A DNA stretch of 64,000 bases from a virus: the IMG/VR virus record IMGVR_UViG_3300030387_000070. One strand, written 5' to 3'. The position numbers and the translations under genes were made by a program. Shown here in pieces: positions 2,438 to 22,262 of the stretch (position 1 is the first letter of the stretch; the number at the start of each line of letters is the position of its first letter). The notes beneath the pieces are model-generated. The model made no database searches. It was not told where the DNA came from and saw nothing but the letters and a program-made list of their open reading frames with translations.

Positions 2438-2450
2438 AAGGGATATTGAT

Positions 2451-2639
2451 ATGAATTTACTTACATTTCTTTCTTTGGTCACTGATGGCACAAGCATAGC
2501 TCTTTGGGATGACTACAAGGAGCAAAAAATCAAAGATTATTGTAAACGTGACCAGATTTCAATTTCTGAAGCCAGTCGGTACGAAGTGTCGTTCTTTACG
2601 GCAGAATGCGAAGGTATGATTACAATTTTTGTGCATTAA
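2451..2639 (+). CDS. hypothetical protein
   Basis: Track ORF with AAGGGA upstream. Confidence 0.45.
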   Translation: MNLLTFLSLVTDGTSIALWDDYKEQKIKDYCKRDQISISEASRYEVSFFTAECEGMITIFVH

Positions 2640-2667: not shown

Positions 2668-3534
2668 ATGAAAAACCTGTATTGCTATGATAATGAAATC
2701 ATAAAATGGACTTTACGCGACAATCTATATTGTTTGCATATTCAGCACGATGATATTGCGGACAATAATCCTCGTTGGTGGGACGAACATGATTCTGTAA
2801 TGGCCTGTTTTCATTCTCGGTATCGTCTTGGTGATAAGATTGATGCGAGTACGGCAGAAGAGTTTTGGAACAATCTTGTTTACGAGTATTGCTCTGATGA
2901 AGAAATTCTGGATGCACTTTTTAACATGAAGTTGGAAGATACCTGTGTCGTTGTTGATGAGAATTACAGTGACGAAAAACGATATACTATTTGTGGTATC
3001 GGAACTCTTTTTGATAAAAAGGTCTCTAATAATCCAATGTATGTTGGATTAAAGTATAACGAAATTGCTACATATGTTGCTGGTGAATTTTCTATTCGAG
3101 ATTGTCAGATTCTTCTTGATAAGCATATTGCATGGCTTCCTCTTTGGCTGCACGATCACTCTGGTTTATCTATGGATTGTGATACACGGTTCAGAGGTTC
3201 GTTGGATGACAGTAATGTTGGTTGGATTGTGATCGCTATTACGGATGGTTCGGATAATACCAAAAACGAAGCAGAACGAATCATGCGTAACGAGGTAAAG
3301 ACTTACAGCGATTATCTTTCTGGTGAAAACTATGGCTATACGCTTTATAAAGAAGAGCATGGAGAGTGGAAAGAAATTGACAGAGCATTCGGATTTATCG
3401 GTTCCGATGTATTTGAAAACGGTATCACATACAGCGTTGGCTGTGGCCTTGAAACAGCATTAAAGGAAGATCGGTGCCGTATCGGTGATGCAGAGAAGGT
3501 TGTGACCGTCACTTATAACTTTGATAAATGTTGA
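2668..3534 (+). CDS. conserved phage protein, function unknown
   Basis: Track ORF 2629-3534 trimmed to ATG 2668 (GGGAG upstream). Motifs LWLHDHSGLSM and VKTYSDYLSGENYGYTLY..FGFIGSD recall a widespread phage/ICE family whose name I cannot give. Confidence 0.6.
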   Translation: MKNLYCYDNEIIKWTLRDNLYCLHIQHDDIADNNPRWWDEHDSVMACFHSRYRLGDKIDASTAEEFWNNLVYEYCSDEEILDALFNMKLEDTCVVVDENYSDEKRYTICGIGTLFDKKVSNNPMYVGLKYNEIATYVAGEFSIRDCQILLDKHIAWLPLWLHDHSGLSMDCDTRFRGSLDDSNVGWIVIAITDGSDNTKNEAERIMRNEVKTYSDYLSGENYGYTLYKEEHGEWKEIDRAFGFIGSDVFENGITYSVGCGLETALKEDRCRIGDAEKVVTVTYNFDKC

Positions 3535-16670: not shown

Positions 16671-18884
16671 ATGAGAACGCTTTTGCTGTTCCGTGGAGCA
16701 CCAGGTTGTGGGAAGTCCACCTATATTAAAGAGCATAATCTTGAGCAGTATGTATTGAATGCTGATACACTTCGACTTATGTGCCAGAGCGCACAGGAAA
16801 CACCTGCCGGGCGGATGGAGATCTCTCCGCAGAATGATGATGTTGTATGGGAGATGCTTTTCAAACTGCTTGAGGTGCGTATGAGTCATGGCGAGTTTAC
16901 CGTGATTGATGCAACGAATTCCAAGACGGTCGAAATGAATCGTTATAAGAATCTTGCAAAACAGTATCGTTATCGGATGTATGTTATTGACATGACGGAC
17001 CTTCCGATTGAGGAATGCAAACGAAGAAACGCTCAGAGAGAATGGCTGAATCGAGTTCCTGAAGCGGCCATTGATAAGATGTACGCTCGGTTTGCTACTC
17101 AAAAAGTTCCTTCTGGTGTGACAGTTCTTCCTTCTACTACGGATGTGATGTCCGATTTGAACTACTGTCCGAATGACTTCAACCAGTGGAAGAAGATCCA
17201 TATCATCGGTGATGTTCATGGCTGTTATACTTGTTTAAGTGAATACCTTGGTGAGATGAAGGACGACGAACTGTATATCTTCGTTGGTGATTATCTCGAT
17301 CGTGGCATCGAAAACGTTGAGGTATTCAAGTTCTTGTGTGATGTTGTAAATAACAACCGCAAGAATGTGATCCTTTTGGAGGGCAATCATGAGTGTTGGC
17401 TAAACAAGTGGGGGCATGATGAACCGGTTCAGAGTGAAGAGTTTGCAAACTACACTCGTCCGCAGCTCTTTAAAGCCGGTATTGACAAGAACACTGCTCG
17501 TAAGATCTATTCCAGAGTAGGCCAATGTGCCTACTTTGAGTATGATGGGAAGCGGTATTTCGTGAGCCACGGTGGTTTGAGTTATCTGCCTTATTTTCTT
17601 CCTTTCGTATCTGCTGATCAGATGATTAAAGGTGTAGGTCGCTATCCTGATATGCTAACCGTGGCTGAGTCTTGGGAAAAATCGATGCCGGATAGCTACA
17701 TTCAGATCTTCGGCCATCGAAATGTGCAGGATGTTCCTATTGATATGGGGCATCGGTGCTACAATCTCGAAGGAAAAATCGAGTTTGGTGGATATCTCCG
17801 TTGCGTTGAACTTGAACACGGTCAGTCAATCAAATGTGTAGAAACCAAGAACGATGTGTTCCGAAAAGAGGAGCCAAAGACTGAAACTGCCGTTGAAATG
17901 AAAACTGAGTTCGATAACGCAGAACTTGTTAGTAAGATGCGTCAAAGCAAATATGTGTTTGAGAAGCGATTCGGAGATATTTCTTCTTTCAACTTCTCTC
18001 GTGAAGCATTTTATAAGAAGCACTGGGATGAGGTTTCTACCAAAGCAAGGGGATTGTTCATTAACACAAAGACGAATAAGATTGTAGCTCGAAGCTATGA
18101 TAAGTTCTTTGCGGTTGATGAGCGGAATGAAACGAGAATTGGAAACCTACAGAACACTTTGAAGTTCCCAGTGACTGCATATCTAAAAGAGAACGGATTT
18201 CTTGGTATCATTTCGTATGATGCAGAACAGGATGGTCTGTTCATTGCAAGTAAATCCACTCCTGAAGGGCCTTTTGCAGATATGTTCCGAAAGATTATTA
18301 TGGATACTACTTCCGATGAAGATCGTAAGAATCTGAAGGAGGTTGCCAAGGAGCATGGCTCCATCATCTTTGAGGTTATTGATCCTGTGAATGATGCTCA
18401 TATCATAGAATACAAGAAACCGCACATTGTTTTGCTGGATGTTGTTGCAAACGATATGAATTTCAGTGTGATAGATTATGATGACTTGAAACGTGTCGCA
18501 GAAAAGTGTCATCTGCAGATTAAGGAGAAGGTTAAAACCTTTGAGAACTGGAGTGAATTCTATCCTTGGTATGAGGAAGTCATGAATGAGAACTATCTGT
18601 ACCATGACATCGAGCATGTTGAAGGCTTTGTTCTGAGAGATAGTAACAACTTTATGTTCAAGTTAAAGCTTCCTTATTATAAGCATTGGAAGTTCCTGCG
18701 TGGTGTTATGAAGAGCGTCCAGAAACGTGGCTATTACGAAAACACCGCCAAGCTGTTTACGGCTGAAGATAATTTGTTCTATGGTTGGATGCGTGAGCAA
18801 CGAGAGAAAGATCAAGAGGCGTTCAGCAAGAAGGGAATCATTCAGCTGCGAAATGAGTTCTATGCAAGTCAGCAGAAGAGTTGA
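16671..18884 (+). CDS. polynucleotide kinase-phosphatase fused to an RNA-ligase-type nucleotidyltransferase (Pnkp-like RNA repair enzyme)
   Basis: P-loop FRGAPGCGKSTY. Calcineurin-type phosphoesterase boxes IHIIGDVHGC, GDYLDRG, EGNHE and SHGG. C-terminal module with ARGLFINT..YDKFFAVDE and LKENGFLG (a Kx[DN]G-type motif I). The three-domain order matches bacterial Pnkp. Confidence 0.75.
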   Translation: MRTLLLFRGAPGCGKSTYIKEHNLEQYVLNADTLRLMCQSAQETPAGRMEISPQNDDVVWEMLFKLLEVRMSHGEFTVIDATNSKTVEMNRYKNLAKQYRYRMYVIDMTDLPIEECKRRNAQREWLNRVPEAAIDKMYARFATQKVPSGVTVLPSTTDVMSDLNYCPNDFNQWKKIHIIGDVHGCYTCLSEYLGEMKDDELYIFVGDYLDRGIENVEVFKFLCDVVNNNRKNVILLEGNHECWLNKWGHDEPVQSEEFANYTRPQLFKAGIDKNTARKIYSRVGQCAYFEYDGKRYFVSHGGLSYLPYFLPFVSADQMIKGVGRYPDMLTVAESWEKSMPDSYIQIFGHRNVQDVPIDMGHRCYNLEGKIEFGGYLRCVELEHGQSIKCVETKNDVFRKEEPKTETAVEMKTEFDNAELVSKMRQSKYVFEKRFGDISSFNFSREAFYKKHWDEVSTKARGLFINTKTNKIVARSYDKFFAVDERNETRIGNLQNTLKFPVTAYLKENGFLGIISYDAEQDGLFIASKSTPEGPFADMFRKIIMDTTSDEDRKNLKEVAKEHGSIIFEVIDPVNDAHIIEYKKPHIVLLDVVANDMNFSVIDYDDLKRVAEKCHLQIKEKVKTFENWSEFYPWYEEVMNENYLYHDIEHVEGFVLRDSNNFMFKLKLPYYKHWKFLRGVMKSVQKRGYYENTAKLFTAEDNLFYGWMREQREKDQEAFSKKGIIQLRNEFYASQQKS

Positions 18885-19001: not shown

Positions 19002-19083
19002 GCCAAGGTGCTGCAAATGGGAGACAGGGCGAGCCCAAACCTCGCTGTGGAAACACATGCGGTTTCGAATACCGTCCTTGGCA
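19002..19083 (+). tRNA. tRNA-Leu(CAA), type II, CCA encoded
   Basis: Hand fold:
- acceptor GCCAAGG/CCTTGGC
- 3-bp D stem
- anticodon stem GCGAG/CTCGC with loop CCCAAAC
- extra arm TGTG-GAAA-CACA
- T arm GCGGT-TTCGAAT-ACCGT
- then A and CCA
Position 33 is C, which is unusual. Confidence 0.65.
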
Positions 19084-19114
19084 CCAGATAATTTTATGAA
19101 GAAAGGATGATTGC

Positions 19115-19798
19115 ATGGTTAATAGGGCAGAAGATCATATTGGTGATGTCTTTGATTTGTTTGAGGTGATTGATGTTATTCGAGATGAAAATAATATTCC
19201 ATCTTACAAATGTCGATGTAAAGAATGTGGATGGACAGGGCTAAAAAATATAGCTCAGGCGAGAGCGGTTAAAGTGTGTCGGCATAAACAATCGAGTGGC
19301 GATTATAGAAATTTTTCTACACGGTGGAAAAACAAAAGAATCGGACGAATCTTTCATGGAATGAAAGCAAGATGCTATGATGTTGATGATAAAAACTATA
19401 TAACGTATGGCATGAAAGGAATTTGTGTTTATCAAGAATGGTTGGATAATCCAAAGTCATTTGAAGAGTGGTCGTTGAAAAATGGATACAAAGATAGTTT
19501 GACAATCGATAGAATTGATTCGACAAAAGATTACTGTCCTGATAATTGCAGATGGATATCATTGGAAGATAATTCAAAATATAAATCCACAACTCGAATG
19601 TTAGAAGTAGATGGTGAAATACATACGGGACGTGATTGGGCGGCAGAATTAGGGCTTGGAACAAACACGATAAATAAATATGTAAGAAGATACGGAGAAG
19701 ATAATACAAAACAATTTATAAGAAGAGTATTAAAGGACCCGGATAAAGTGAATTCTCGACAAGGGAAACAAACTATCTATAATCTTTACATGAACTAA
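19115..19798 (+). CDS. HNH-type homing-endonuclease-like protein
   Basis: LTIDRIDSTKDYCPDNCRWISLEDNS is the HNH_3-like core. N-terminal CxxC zinc motif (CRCKECG). C-terminal HTH-like WAAELGLGTNTINKYVRRYG. Sits between two tRNA genes. Confidence 0.65.
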   Translation: MVNRAEDHIGDVFDLFEVIDVIRDENNIPSYKCRCKECGWTGLKNIAQARAVKVCRHKQSSGDYRNFSTRWKNKRIGRIFHGMKARCYDVDDKNYITYGMKGICVYQEWLDNPKSFEEWSLKNGYKDSLTIDRIDSTKDYCPDNCRWISLEDNSKYKSTTRMLEVDGEIHTGRDWAAELGLGTNTINKYVRRYGEDNTKQFIRRVLKDPDKVNSRQGKQTIYNLYMN

Positions 19799-19805
19799 AT
19801 TGAAA

Positions 19806-19845
19806 TGGCCCAGTGTAAAAACTGAGTACATTGGGCCAAATATTT
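19806..19845 (+). terminator. hairpin terminator after the HNH gene
   Basis: 12-bp stem TGGCCCAGTGTA / TACATTGGGCCA (one G-U pair) with a 9-nt loop, followed by an A/T-rich tail. Confidence 0.5.
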
Positions 19846-19851
19846 ATATGA

Positions 19852-19935
19852 GCACCCGTGGTGAAATTGGCAACCACGATGGACTTAAAATCCATTCCCG
19901 GTAACGGGTTGCGAGTCCGAGTCTCGCCGGGTGCA
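19852..19935 (+). tRNA. tRNA-Leu(UAA), type II
   Basis: Hand fold:
- acceptor GCACCCG/CGGGTGC
- anticodon stem ATGGA/TCCAT with loop CTTAAAA
- extra arm CCCG-GTAA-CGGG
- T arm GCGAG-TCCGAGT-CTCGC (non-canonical T loop)
No encoded CCA. Confidence 0.65.
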
Positions 19936-19940
19936 TATTT

Positions 19941-20013
19941 CTGGGCGTAGCGAAGTTGGCATCGCACCTGTTTTGGGAACAGGGGACCGCAAGTTCAAAT
20001 CTTGTCGCTCAGA
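19941..20013 (+). tRNA. tRNA-Pro(UGG), CCA encoded
   Basis: Hand fold:
- acceptor CTGGGCG/CGCTCAG
- D arm GCGA..TCGC
- anticodon stem CCTGT/ACAGG with loop TTTGGGA
- T arm GCAAG-TTCAAAT-CTTGT
- then A and CCA. Confidence 0.75.
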
Positions 20014-20019
20014 CCACTA

Positions 20020-20106
20020 CGAGGATTCGCCAAGTTGGTAAGGCAGCGGAATTTGACTCCGCCAGCGCTGAACAAGCGGTCACAGGTTCGAGTCCTGTAT
20101 CCTCGG
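20020..20106 (+). tRNA. tRNA-Gln(UUG)-like with a 19-nt extra arm
   Basis: Hand fold:
- acceptor CGAGGAT/ATCCTCG
- D arm TCGCCAAGTTGGTAAGGCA
- anticodon stem GCGGA/TCCGC with loop ATTTGAC
- variable region CAGCGCTGAACAAGCGGTC (CGCT/AGCG hairpin)
- T arm ACAGG-TTCGAGT-CCTGT
- discriminator G. Confidence 0.55.
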
Positions 20107-20113
20107 CTTATAT

Positions 20114-20195
20114 GCGGGTATGGTGTAACTGGCAGCCACGTCAGATTTAGGATCTGATGCCGAAAGGCGTGAGGGATCGTGCCCCTCTACCCGTA
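20114..20195 (+). tRNA. tRNA-Leu(UAG), type II, CCA encoded
   Basis: Hand fold:
- acceptor GCGGGTA/TACCCGT (G1-U72)
- anticodon stem TCAGA/TCTGA with loop TTTAGGA
- extra arm GCC-GAAA-GGC
- T arm GAGGG-ATCGTGC-CCCTC (atypical loop)
- then A and CCA. Confidence 0.55.
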
Positions 20196-20297
20196 CCACG
20201 GTCATAGAATGGTTGCGTACCGTTTGTTGATCTCCTTTACTATTATTCCCGGCTCGCCAGTGATGGTGCAGTAGTGCTTTGTAAGCTGGGTTTTCAT

Positions 20298-20369
20298 GCA
20301 GCGGTCGTACAACGGCTAGTACATCAGCCTTCCAAGCTGAGGATGAGGTTTCGACTACCTTTCGCTGCT
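20298..20369 (+). tRNA. tRNA-Gly(UCC), CCA encoded
   Basis: Hand fold:
- acceptor GCAGCGG/TCGCTGC
- D arm GTAC..GTAC
- anticodon stem TCAGC/GCTGA with loop CTTCCAA
- T arm GAGGT-TTCGACT-ACCTT
- then T and CCA. Confidence 0.75.
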
Positions 20370-20560
20370 CCAATCTTGTATGGGTAGGATCTTTAGCGGT
20401 CAGATCCAGCCGCGCCTGTGCAAGATACCACCCCGAAAGGGGCGAGATATAGGAAATGTGCATCGCTGTTATTCCTTCCTCGTCTATATGATATAGATGC
20501 AATAGTGTTTTATAAGGAAGGTCCCCAGTTGAATAGTTGCAGCTGTTTGACTGGTAATAT

Positions 20561-20634
20561 GGGATAGTAGCTCAGTTGGTCAGAGCTGGCGGCTCATAAC
20601 CGCTTGGTCGCGAGTTCAAATCTTGCCTGTCCCA
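20561..20634 (+). tRNA. tRNA-Met/Ile2(CAU)
   Basis: Hand fold:
- acceptor GGGATAG/CTGTCCC
- D arm GCTC-AGTTGGTCA-GAGC
- anticodon stem GGCGG/CCGCT with loop CTCATAA
- T arm GCGAG-TTCAAAT-CTTGC. Confidence 0.75.
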
Positions 20635-20742
20635 CTAACCCGATAGGGTGAATACATAGAATTTGCTAGAAATTTTGTTTTATGGGCGAATAAATAATAT
20701 GACGTTGATACGTCTATTATTTTTCGCTAATTTTTAAAGTTT

Positions 20743-20763: not shown

Positions 20764-20780
20764 GAAAAGGAGGTGGTTTG

Positions 20781-21503
20781 GTGAAACATTATGGAAGTAT
20801 TTGCGAGATTGATGGTTCTAAGATTGAGCCTGTCTCGTGTATCACTGGTGGTTCACCTTGTTAGCCAAGACCTTTCTATTGCCGGCAAGCGGGCAGGTTT
20901 GGCTGGAGAACGGTCTGGTCTATTTATGGAAATGATTCGTGTGATAAAGGAGATGAGGGAGGCCACCAATGGAGAGTATCCAAAATTTGCAATCTGGGAA
21001 AACGTCCCAGGAGCCTTCTCTTCCAACAAAGGAGAAGACTTTAGATGTGTCTTGGAAGAATTTGCACGCATTGTCGAACCAAGTGTTTCAGTTCCTCGAC
21101 CTTCGGGAAGAGAATGTAAGTGGGCAAAAGCTGGAGCAATCGCCGGAAACGGATGGTCCTTGGCGTGGAGATTATTCGACGCTAGTGGTTGGGGTGTTCC
21201 CCAGCGTAGAAAACGTCTCGCGCTTGTCATGGACCTTAGAGGACAATGTGCCGGAAAAGTATTATTTGAGCAAACGGGCGTGTCAGGGGATCTTGATAAG
21301 AGCGTCAAGACGTGGAAAACCATTGCCCGACCTTCTGAAGGATGCACTGCAGGAGATGATTCATTGGTGGGAGATGAAAGATCCTACACTTTGAAGATTC
21401 GTTCTGGCTGCGCAGGGGGGGTAAAGGAGCACTCGTGCAGAATGAATTGAGTGCGACTCTCTCCACTTTGCAAGATCAGACTTTGTTCTGTGTAAAGCAT
21501 TAA
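20781..21503 (+). pseudogene. C5-cytosine DNA methyltransferase, catalytic part (motifs IV-VIII), frame-disrupted
   Basis: - GTG 20781 follows AAGGAGG by 7 nt and gives ..IEPVSCITGGSPC, then TAG at 20862.
- One frame over: QDLSIAGKRAGLAGERSGLF, WENVPGAFSS, GVPQRRKRLALV.
- Further homologous-looking pieces lie in the two other frames: ..LEDNVPEKYYLSKRACQGIL.. and GGKGALVQNELSATLSTLQDQTLF.
- At least 3 frame changes are needed to read all of this. Confidence 0.7.
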
Positions 21504-21515
21504 GGAGGGAACGGA

Positions 21516-22262
21516 TTGGAAAAAGAAACCAGTTTACATAATTTAAAACAAAATATTTCCACAGCGGTATTTGAAAGCCATAGTCAGGATGCTCGATACA
21601 CTCAGCAAGGTAATACAAGCCCAGCTTGTACAGCTCAATGGGGTACTGGTGGTAATAATATGCCGCTTGTCGCTGAAAAGAAAGCCTTTGCTATGCAGCG
21701 TATTGGCGAATATAAGGAAAGCGAACAGGCCAGCACAATGAAATCTCGTGATTATAAAGATGCAACTGATCTTGTAGTTGAAGAGAAAGAGGTGAAATGT
21801 GCTGGGTTTCCACTTGGATTTAGAGCAGAAAATACGAAATGCTACGATGAAGTGGCTACTACGCTTTGCAATGGTACGCGGCCTGGATTTACTACTGGAT
21901 GTGTTCTCAATTGGATTGTTCGCCGCTTGACTCCTGTTGAGTGTGAACGGTTACAGGGTTTTCCTGATGGATGGACCGATATTGGCGAGTGGGTTGACGA
22001 AAATGGTAAAAAGCACAAGCCAGCCGATTCTCCTCGGTACAAGGCGCTCGGCAATTCGATTGCTTTGCCTCAGTGGTATTGGATTTGCCAGAAGATGAAA
22101 CCGTATATTGGTGAAAATCCTACGCTTGGCAGTCTTTTCGATGGAATCGGTGGCTTTCCGCTTGTCTTTGAAAGTACGTATGGTGATGGTACTGCTATCT
22201 GGGGATCTGAAATTGAATCGTTTTGTGTTGCGGTGACAAAGAAGCATTTTCCAGAAGACTAA
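21516..22262 (+). CDS. C5-cytosine DNA methyltransferase, target-recognition and motif IX-X part with a C-terminally appended motif I-II
   Basis: TTG start 7 nt after AAGGAGG. Contains WGTGGNNMPLV, VRRLTPVECERLQGFPDGWT and RYKALGNSIALP. It then continues into LGSLFDGIGGFPLVFE..IWGSEIESFCVAVTKKHFPED*, which is the FxGxGG AdoMet motif normally found at the N-terminus. Confidence 0.75.
   Translation: MEKETSLHNLKQNISTAVFESHSQDARYTQQGNTSPACTAQWGTGGNNMPLVAEKKAFAMQRIGEYKESEQASTMKSRDYKDATDLVVEEKEVKCAGFPLGFRAENTKCYDEVATTLCNGTRPGFTTGCVLNWIVRRLTPVECERLQGFPDGWTDIGEWVDENGKKHKPADSPRYKALGNSIALPQWYWICQKMKPYIGENPTLGSLFDGIGGFPLVFESTYGDGTAIWGSEIESFCVAVTKKHFPED

Follow-up and report, generated by a model that had tools for sequence, protein, structure and literature searches.

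Our analysis of a locus at positions 20,781 to 22,262 of the virus record IMGVR_UViG_3300030387_000070, a stretch of 64,000 nucleotides (nt) hereafter called the window, suggests that it is a phage-encoded orphan gene for a C5-cytosine DNA methyltransferase belonging to a large natural family of circularly permuted enzymes, present here as a derived allele whose expression would be throttled or switched, a reading to which we assign a probability of about 0.62. As far as sequence comparison can tell, the permuted topology is real and widespread, and has apparently gone undescribed in nature. In the window, the motifs follow the order III-IV-VI-VIII / variable region-IX-X-linker-I-II, with the termini of the protein between motifs II and III, and motifs I (FxGxGG), II, VI (ENV), VIII (QxRxR), IX, and X are all present. 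Natural permutation of C5 methyltransferases was known previously at one place only, the variable region, and the II|III order had so far only been made in the laboratory; this locus would show that such an order is also used by nature, in a large and diverse family of gut phages where it stands beside canonical and M.BssHII-like relatives. An earlier note on this DNA had proposed that the segment normally preceding motif IV lies at the N-terminus. That order proved right, but the note overlooked motif III at the new N-terminus, where M-K-H-Y-G-S-I begins four residues ahead of the motif III position (YGSI here corresponding to GDI).

Permuted motif order and related genes

The window copy is written as four open reading frame (ORF) fragments, A to D, in two reading frames (Table 1), and not as the two translational units described earlier. 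Matches of the PF00145 profile (curated cut-off, 22 bits) to these fragments fell on profile positions 72-131 and 252-322, with fragment B scoring 58.7 bits (E 8.3e-16) and fragment D 39.9 bits. When the C-terminal tail was placed first, residues 12-148 of the re-ordered protein aligned to profile positions 4-131 in one stretch, and the score rose to 133.4 bits (E 1.6e-38). A permuted order was also evident in P0099, a database relative that is a clean single ORF of 429 amino acids (aa) starting with MKHLGDI, and that scores 115.6 bits against TIGR00675 (dcm; cut-off, 100.65 bits). Its alignment to M.HhaI is made of the segments 4-88/58-135, 128-148/149-169, 312-335/267-290, and 387-428/16-55 (P0099/M.HhaI), which places the break at M.HhaI residue ~56, between motifs II and III. 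A normal motif order was hence seen neither by Pfam nor by M.HhaI mapping, and the locus has the features of a class B (II|III) topology, namely an N-terminus between II and III, motif X fused to motif I, and an end after motif II.

A search for relatives, which the earlier note had called for, recovered the same permuted order in a large family, together with canonical members of the same clade. By tblastn, the order III...X, I-II was found in Toutatis and Lelie, two isolated phages of Faecalibacterium, and as a single uninterrupted ORF in the gut-phage scaffold MT836051. Fragment D retrieved 484 IMG/VR loci, the best 80 of which match it near-completely (residues 1, 6, 7, or 18 to 247/248). 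Intact permuted relatives are single ORFs of ~390 to 670 aa, and the complete single-chain members in the database (P0058, P0095, P0099, and P0100) start with M(K/I)HLGD and end with ...VTK..F.E. When the 81-residue X-linker-I-II tail was used for an exhaustive search, 1792 cluster representatives (50% identity) were returned at E<=1e-3; the tail is contiguous in 150 of the top 150 representatives, and nearly always C-terminal. An exact-sequence look-up of P0126 gave no match. In P0003, a homologue of fragment D (424 aa), an in-frame insertion of ~175 aa lies within motif IX, between ...RLQGFP and GWTDIGEW; it carries HNH_3 and helix-turn-helix domains (PF13392, PF13384) and lacks intein-like ends, and it could represent an intron that is read through or an inserted endonuclease.

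Because an ATG at 22095 (MKPYIGENPT...) just before motif I looks like an ancestral start, it could be argued that the C-terminal I-II piece is the functionless beginning of another, truncated copy of the gene. We rejected this candidate, which we regard as extremely improbable, on the grounds of contiguity, selection, and invariant columns. The I-II piece is contiguous and in frame with motif X, with no Shine-Dalgarno (SD) sequence of its own, and it occupies the C-terminus in nearly all of the top 150 representatives. The tail shows 44 synonymous to 22 nonsynonymous substitutions with third-position variation dominant (16/12/57 across codon positions), and its columns invariant in 38 aligned relatives include L385-G391, G393-F395, E413, and F426. 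No other motif I-II was found in these permuted genes, so the enzyme would lack an S-adenosylmethionine (AdoMet) site without this integral part. A misassembled tandem duplication or sequencing errors could also be invoked to explain the order or the frame breaks, since homopolymer lengths are error-prone and most relatives derive from metagenome assemblies. Such an artefact, however, is hardly conceivable to us, as two isolated phages, Toutatis and Lelie, have the same order, as do hundreds of independent contigs drawn from many datasets, no second gene copy or repeat was found within the window, and the TTAG insertion described below is shared in identical form by 40 of 79 related loci, these 40 coming from at least six IMG datasets.

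The permuted chain probably folds like an ordinary C5 methyltransferase, given that the native termini are adjacent and that engineered II|III permutants of M.MpeI and M.SssI have an activity close to the wild-type level.

Organization of the window copy

The GTG at 20781, which opens VKHYGSICEIDGSKIEPVSCITGGSPC, lies 7 nt behind AAAGGAGG, as had been noted. The first part of the gene was then thought to run through motifs IV, VI, and VIII: these motifs are present, but not in a single ORF, which is interrupted by the TAG at 20862-20864, by a +1 shift, and by a tract of seven G residues (G7). The stop and the shift are both the effect of a TTAG insertion between the catalytic Cys and the Gln of the PCQ motif. 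Motif IV, with its catalytic Cys, does not therefore appear in a continuous GxPCQ context in the window, which reads GGSPC, then TAG, then QDLS in the +1 frame, where the rest of the motif resumes at 20866 as QDLSIAGKRAGL...; GxPCQ is continuous in P0099 and in the intact (class 1) relatives. Further downstream, the GGGKGALVQ.E.SATLSTLQDQTL block of fragment C is conserved family-wide. The TAA that ends this fragment at 21501 overlaps an AAGGAGG (21502-21508), and TTG 21516 comes 7 nt after the latter. This second start with its own SD, opening the ORF with motifs IX and X, was as the earlier note had it, and the same ORF does continue past motif X into motifs I and II (LGSLFDGIGGF, GSEIESF) up to ...KKHFPED.

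A clean two-subunit permuted enzyme, with unit 1 spanning GTG 20781 to motif VIII and unit 2 beginning at TTG 21516, would fit several of these features. There are SD and start signals at both sites, the split site matches that of M.AquI and of complementing cp62M.MpeI fragments (PMC5944983), and fragments B and C share one frame in the sister genomes with a G8 tract (L012, L015, L019, L020, and L023). The TAA/SD/TTG split in the variable region is moreover conserved in 14 genomes. The upstream ORF, however, is broken twice in the window, by TAG 20862 with its shift and again by G7, and all genomes with the split carry TTAG too. Due to the stop after the catalytic Cys and the out-of-frame G7, the DNA as written cannot yield a two-chain enzyme without recoding or slippage; for this DNA, the two-subunit reading is already refuted, and more generally we deem it very unlikely.

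Table 1. Features of the methyltransferase locus, its surroundings, and its relatives (window coordinates, unless a related locus is named).
Feature	Position	Strand	Details
tRNA cluster	19002-20635	+	seven genes, immediately upstream of the methyltransferase locus
Shine-Dalgarno AAAGGAGG	20766-20773	+	7-nt spacer, then GTG start 20781-20783
Fragment A, frame 0	20781-20864	+	motif III region and first half of motif IV; ends ...ITGGSPC, then TAG 20862-20864
TTAG, 4-nt insertion	20861-20864	+	relative to intact relatives (CCxTG|CCAAGA)
Candidate shift-site stretch ACTGGTGGTTCACCTTGTTAGCCAAGAC			with GGTGGT element
Fragment B, +1 frame	20866-21450	+	QDLSIAG..., ENVPG, QRRKR, YTLKIRSGCAGG; runs out of frame to TGA 21448-21450
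+1 ORF relative to fragment B	20969-21394	+	141 codons; core SRLSWTLEDNVPEKYYLSKRACQGILIRASRRGKPLPDLLKDALQEMIHWW at 21218-21370; overlaps the stretch after motif VIII
Motif VI, ENVPG	20998-21012	+	in fragment B
Motif VIII, QRRKR	21202-21216	+	in fragment B
Poly-G tract	21415-21421	+	G7 in the window; G8 needed to keep SGCAGGGKGALVQ in frame
Fragment C, frame 0	21420-21503	+	GKGALVQNELSATLSTLQDQTLFCVKH at 21420-21500, then TAA 21501-21503
Stop/restart cassette TAAGGAGGGAACGGATTG	21501-21518	+	TAA, SD GGAGG, 7-nt spacer, TTG 21516
Fragment D	21516-22262	+	248 aa; target recognition domain (TRD) part, IX, X, linker, I, II, ...KKHFPED; stop 22260-22262
Motif IX, RRLTPVECERLQGFPDGW	21921-21974	+	in fragment D
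Motif X, GNSIALP	22050-22070	+	in fragment D
Linker QKMKPYIGENPT (MKPYIGENPT)	from 22095	+	in fragment D, same ORF as motif X
Motif I, LGSLFDGIGGF	22125-22157	+	in fragment D
Motif II, GSEIESF	22203-22223	+	in fragment D
Poly-G tract of L001	~3318-3324		changes frame
Poly-G tract of L002	~3318-3329		changes frame
Poly-G tract of L088	~2440-2460		changes frame
Poly-G tract of L089			changes frame

Allele classes and selection

Mapping of the four window pieces on 80 related loci separated these into three classes. Class 1 (39 loci) has one continuous ORF with a CTG start at an SD spacing of 8; class 2 (26 loci) carries the identical TTAG after the Cys codon and is otherwise a single ORF; class 3 (14 loci, including the window) combines TTAG with the poly-G tract and the TAA/SD/TTG cassette. 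Classes 1 and 2 lack this cassette and have ...DQTLICLA(D/E)N.SLHN... in frame instead. The codon at the start position is GTG in the TTAG loci, CTG in class 1, and ATG in P0099, P0058, and Toutatis. About 30 nt upstream of motif III, the intact class 1 genes (L044, L017, and others) have no in-frame ATG, GTG, or TTG; the only well-spaced start is the CTG, 8 nt past GGAGG, and an ATG located 1 nt past the SD opens a short out-of-frame ORF.

Of the 14 class 3 loci, five have a G7 tract, five the in-frame G8, two G10, and one each G9 and G11, although the loci are mostly 96-100% identical to their nearest relative, so that between genomes the tract behaves as a phase-variable one would. In Toutatis, Lelie, and L088, other G-tracts change the frame between motifs VI and VIII, as does one ahead of YTLKIRSG in L089. 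Those of Toutatis and Lelie are unequal in length and both out of frame, and the Toutatis tract joins III-VI to the +1-frame peptide discussed below (annotated as gp14). What had appeared as three coupled ORFs in L088 is really a canonical gene with a poly-G frameshift.

Among the TTAG-bearing loci, the ratio of nonsynonymous to synonymous rates (dN/dS) was ~0.16 for fragment B and 0.09 for fragment D, with dS ~0.5. Within class 3, synonymous to nonsynonymous changes numbered 7:4 in fragment A (2/3/8 across codon positions), 25:12 in B, and 75:37 in D, with third positions dominating, and the 27 codons before the TAG evolve as coding sequence in their own frame. In class 2, ORFs of 456-523 codons are kept in 23 of 25 loci, with a ratio of 157:65 (50/34/182 across codon positions). 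The 30-nt core around TTAG, ATCACTGGTGGTTCACCTTGTTAGCCAAGA, shows two changes only among the aligned TTAG loci, ATC to ATT (L060/L061) and AGC to AGT (L007/L008), and class 1 varies there at synonymous sites. By these substitution patterns, all pieces of the window-type allele are still under purifying selection in their own frames, and since this holds for every piece, regulated or recoded expression is favored over simple decay. In our reading, the window carries a derived allele that is interrupted three times and whose expression would be throttled or switchable.

Possible expression of the interrupted allele

According to this proposal, expression of the allele would be throttled or switched, and not abolished. 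A +1 shift at UGU-UAG-C, or else termination followed by restart, might occur on a minority of ribosomes; the poly-G tract might act as an ON/OFF phase switch; and the TAA/SD/TTG cassette would make TRD-IX-X-I-II a separate polypeptide. The conserved 30-nt core and the selection on both flanking frames do mark a candidate shift site, albeit a non-canonical one. With G7, the copy in the window would most probably be OFF, as its first chain would end without the conserved GGKGALVQ...STLQDQTL block. Switching of this kind could benefit a phage for which methylation is a protection from restriction-modification systems but a liability under methylation-dependent restriction. The stricter possibility that the permuted enzyme is made solely through programmed +1 recoding at UGU-UAG-C plus poly-G switching, and that the clade-wide embedded +1 gene described in the next section acts with the enzyme or controls it, appears doubtful to us.

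Several observations weigh against our interpretation and need to be acknowledged. UGU-UAG-C is not a classical slippery site, since re-pairing of the tRNA-Cys with GUU is impossible; in a +1 product, the PCQ motif would be expanded by one Ser to PC-S-QDLS; and no RNA structure or stimulator was evident at the TTAG junction (z -1.5, similar to class 1). Differences in G-tract length could in part reflect assembly or sequencing errors. An AlphaFold model of P0099, obtained from a 38-sequence alignment, reached a predicted local distance difference test (pLDDT) score of 42 and was unusable, which is why the fold was taken from the sequence and from published engineered permutants. Furthermore, downstream of the junction the intact allele of L029 shares 92-97% identity with class 2; recombination near the junction therefore exists and could mimic selection in situ by repeatedly transferring the TTAG patch to genes that were functional until recently. 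Moreover, 2 of the 25 class 2 loci (L018 and L025, with extra stops), as well as many database ORFs, are broken further.

The last of these points are also those that a serious rival explanation would draw upon, namely that the window copy is a decaying pseudogene in which the TTAG knock-out came first and the G slip and the TAA later, the signal of selection being inherited via recombination. The three independent interruptions, one of them right behind the catalytic Cys, would be expected in such a case, as would the crossovers near the junction to which L029 testifies and the varied fragmentation of many relatives. Yet the identical TTAG is shared by 40 of the 79 loci while 23 of the 25 class 2 genes retain their long ORFs, a synonymous excess is seen in class 2 and in every class 3 fragment, including the 27-codon piece before the stop, and behind the TAA come an SD and a TTG at good spacing, with fragment D intact in 14 of 14 class 3 genomes. 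On balance, we judge decay to be unlikely, and continue to favor an allele whose expression is throttled or switched.

Two further candidates were tried and rejected. A suppressor or quadruplet-decoding tRNA that would explain the TAG was not found in the upstream cluster, and tRNA-Gln(UUG) alleles do not track TTAG. Spread of TTAG by a homing endonuclease was also dismissed, as the HNH ORF at 19115-19798, the sole endonuclease checked, is present in 3 of 81 loci only.

A second reading frame after motif VIII

Past motif VIII, the frame under selection flips to +1 for ~40-45 codons and then returns. Codon-position variability at ~21225-21345 indicates selection on the +1 frame and not on the methyltransferase frame, and the flip is seen in the group to which the window belongs and, independently, in 27 canonical and 34 permuted sequences. 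The same peptide, with the same relative frame and end point, is encoded in permuted relatives and in canonical genes of Streptococcus, Providencia, and Vibrio phages. Its product of ~70 aa, MLNTGE.P...S.LS.ILE..VP.KYYLS..AC.GIL.RA..RGK.LP..L..AL, is also present in L001-L006 and L092-L171. A profile search with this peptide returned 2792 proteins, the best 120 of which are all 62-133 aa long, and many of the best matches start with MLNTGE.P at an ATG inside the LDAQYW codons. A distance of 58 nt separates motif VIII from the downstream YYLS in ~77 loci, in most of which the main ORF spans the +1 ORF; in ~7, the +1 frame continues into TRD-IX, as in P0023 (read on 23 contigs).

AlphaFold predicts a three-helix core for the +1 protein (pLDDT 77.6). 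Neither Pfam nor NCBIfam nor the sequences in the PDB gave a match, Foldseek had none at E<1, and the sole hit was a weak one to PHROG 16143. The protein may be a separate partner or regulator, or an alternative N-terminal module of the C-terminal chain. Taken with the stop after the Cys, which is kept under purifying selection, and the hypermutable G-tracts, the selected +1 ORF points to layered control of phage DNA methylation, which may be adjusted to the opposing pressures of restriction-modification and methylation-dependent restriction. Stops, G-tracts, and the +1 ORF would also account for the frequency with which these genes are annotated as fragments.

Origin of the permutation

The earlier observation that ..HFPED and (V)KHYGS.. 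fit together was borne out by canonical relatives, which are continuous across the break, reading ...RFPNMKHLGSV in L088 and ...MPEVKHLGDV in Javan191; HFPE(D)* and (V/M)KH(Y/L)G join precisely at this site. It follows from this continuity that the start codon of the permuted genes is an internal Met/Val codon of the canonical ones. The linker, in turn, retains an ATG (MKPY...TLGSLFDG; 22095) that resembles the ancestral start. Three topologies coexist in the clade, canonical, type-H-like, and class-B-like. A BssHII-like order, TRD/IX-X-I-II-III-IV-VI-VIII, is found in P0305 (L172 1637-3259, stand-alone), P0317, and P0319, which possess the X-to-I fusion together with a continuous II-III junction, and this fusion is shared by both permuted orders. 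Coexistence of orders with a common X-to-I fusion is what an in-frame tandem fusion, truncated later in different ways, would be expected to produce, and we propose that the class-B-like and type-H-like orders might have arisen in this way. Tandem fusion followed by truncation is also the experimental route used for M.HaeIII, M.MpeI, and M.SssI (PMC5944983), and this clade could serve as a natural series illustrating how duplication, fusion, and truncation lead to new protein topologies.

Comparison with known systems

The earlier note had suggested that the topology may be new, and no description of a natural II|III permutant was found in the literature that we searched. In a REBASE search for motif X before motif I, Slaska-Kiss et al. 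(2018) obtained 27 enzymes, all of them permuted in the variable region (PMC5944983), and a December 2025 classification places 5-methylcytosine methylation in only two structural classes, C and F (10.1101/2023.12.13.571470). M.BssHII, M.Alw26I, M2.Eco31I, M.Esp3I, and M2.BsaI (Type H/J) resemble the present family in being naturally permuted with X before I, but their break lies in the variable region, so that IX-X precede I-VIII, whereas here it falls between II and III. The Type H/J order was not seen in the window or the 80 related loci, all of which start at motif III.

The closest counterparts are engineered. Class B permutants, and the M.HaeIII permutants from directed evolution cited in PMC5944983, likewise have their N-terminus between II and III and the order III...X-I-II, and their native C-terminus is joined to the native N-terminus either directly or via a short linker (~10 residues in the window). 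Class B (II|III) constructs were the most active of the engineered permutants, with activity comparable to wild type, and the fragments [62-279] and [280-61] of cp62M.MpeI complement each other (PMC5944983), a split in the variable region that is mirrored by the TAA/SD/TTG split of this locus. Unlike these laboratory versions of CG-specific Mollicutes enzymes, the family of the window is natural, diverse, and of phage origin, has long variable regions, and is known from sequence. M.AquI alpha/beta has its two-chain split at the same place, in the variable region, but retains the canonical order, whereas the second chain of this locus would also bear I-II and the first is interrupted further. 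In plant DRM2, another natural permuted C5 methyltransferase, motifs VI-X precede I-V; this enzyme is eukaryotic and not closely related, although DRM2 chains in the PDB match P0099 weakly (E 4e-4).

Stop-dependent +1 frameshifting is known from prfB/RF2 (CUU-UGA-C) and from antizyme (UCC-UGA-U) (Atkins et al., 2016, PMC5009743). As in these genes, the putative site of this locus has a 0-frame stop and a +1 continuation, with a GGUGGU SD-like element upstream; in contrast to them, its P-site UGU cannot re-pair in +1 and no stimulator was identified. A G7 run like that of the window occurs in herpesvirus thymidine kinase, where it has been called a savior indel site because indels are compensated by low-level frameshifting (PMC5009743).

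The +1 ORF also has a parallel within the C5 methyltransferases. In M.EcoHK31I, a different frame within the alpha gene codes for the beta polypeptide, an indispensable subunit that bears motif IX. That enzyme (named in PMC3404938) thus has, like this locus, a second coding frame inside the variable region; here, on the other hand, the main frame holds all the motifs, and the +1 product is modeled as a ~70-aa three-helix protein.

Genomic context

The window represents a replication and nucleotide-metabolism module of a large phage, with every gene on the + strand and with genes for a DNA polymerase, a DnaB-like helicase, a Dda-like helicase, RecJ, NrdD, and an RNA ligase/polynucleotide kinase. 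The related loci lie on IMG/VR contigs of ~110-140 kb with the same flanking genes, and a megablast search of GenBank phages with the locus and 9.7 kb downstream gave no match. Encoded upstream of the methyltransferase and adjoining the tRNA cluster is a 737-aa protein (16671-18884) in which polynucleotide kinase/phosphatase is fused to RNA ligase (tRNA repair type). At 88 nt, the tRNA called as Gln(UUG) (20020-20107) has a class II body with a long variable arm and G73; in relatives, its position is occupied by an allele of either 71-74 nt or 87-90 nt, independently of the TTAG class. The HNH endonuclease ORF already mentioned lies inside this tRNA cluster and, given its presence in so few of the related loci, is probably a mobile homing-endonuclease gene.

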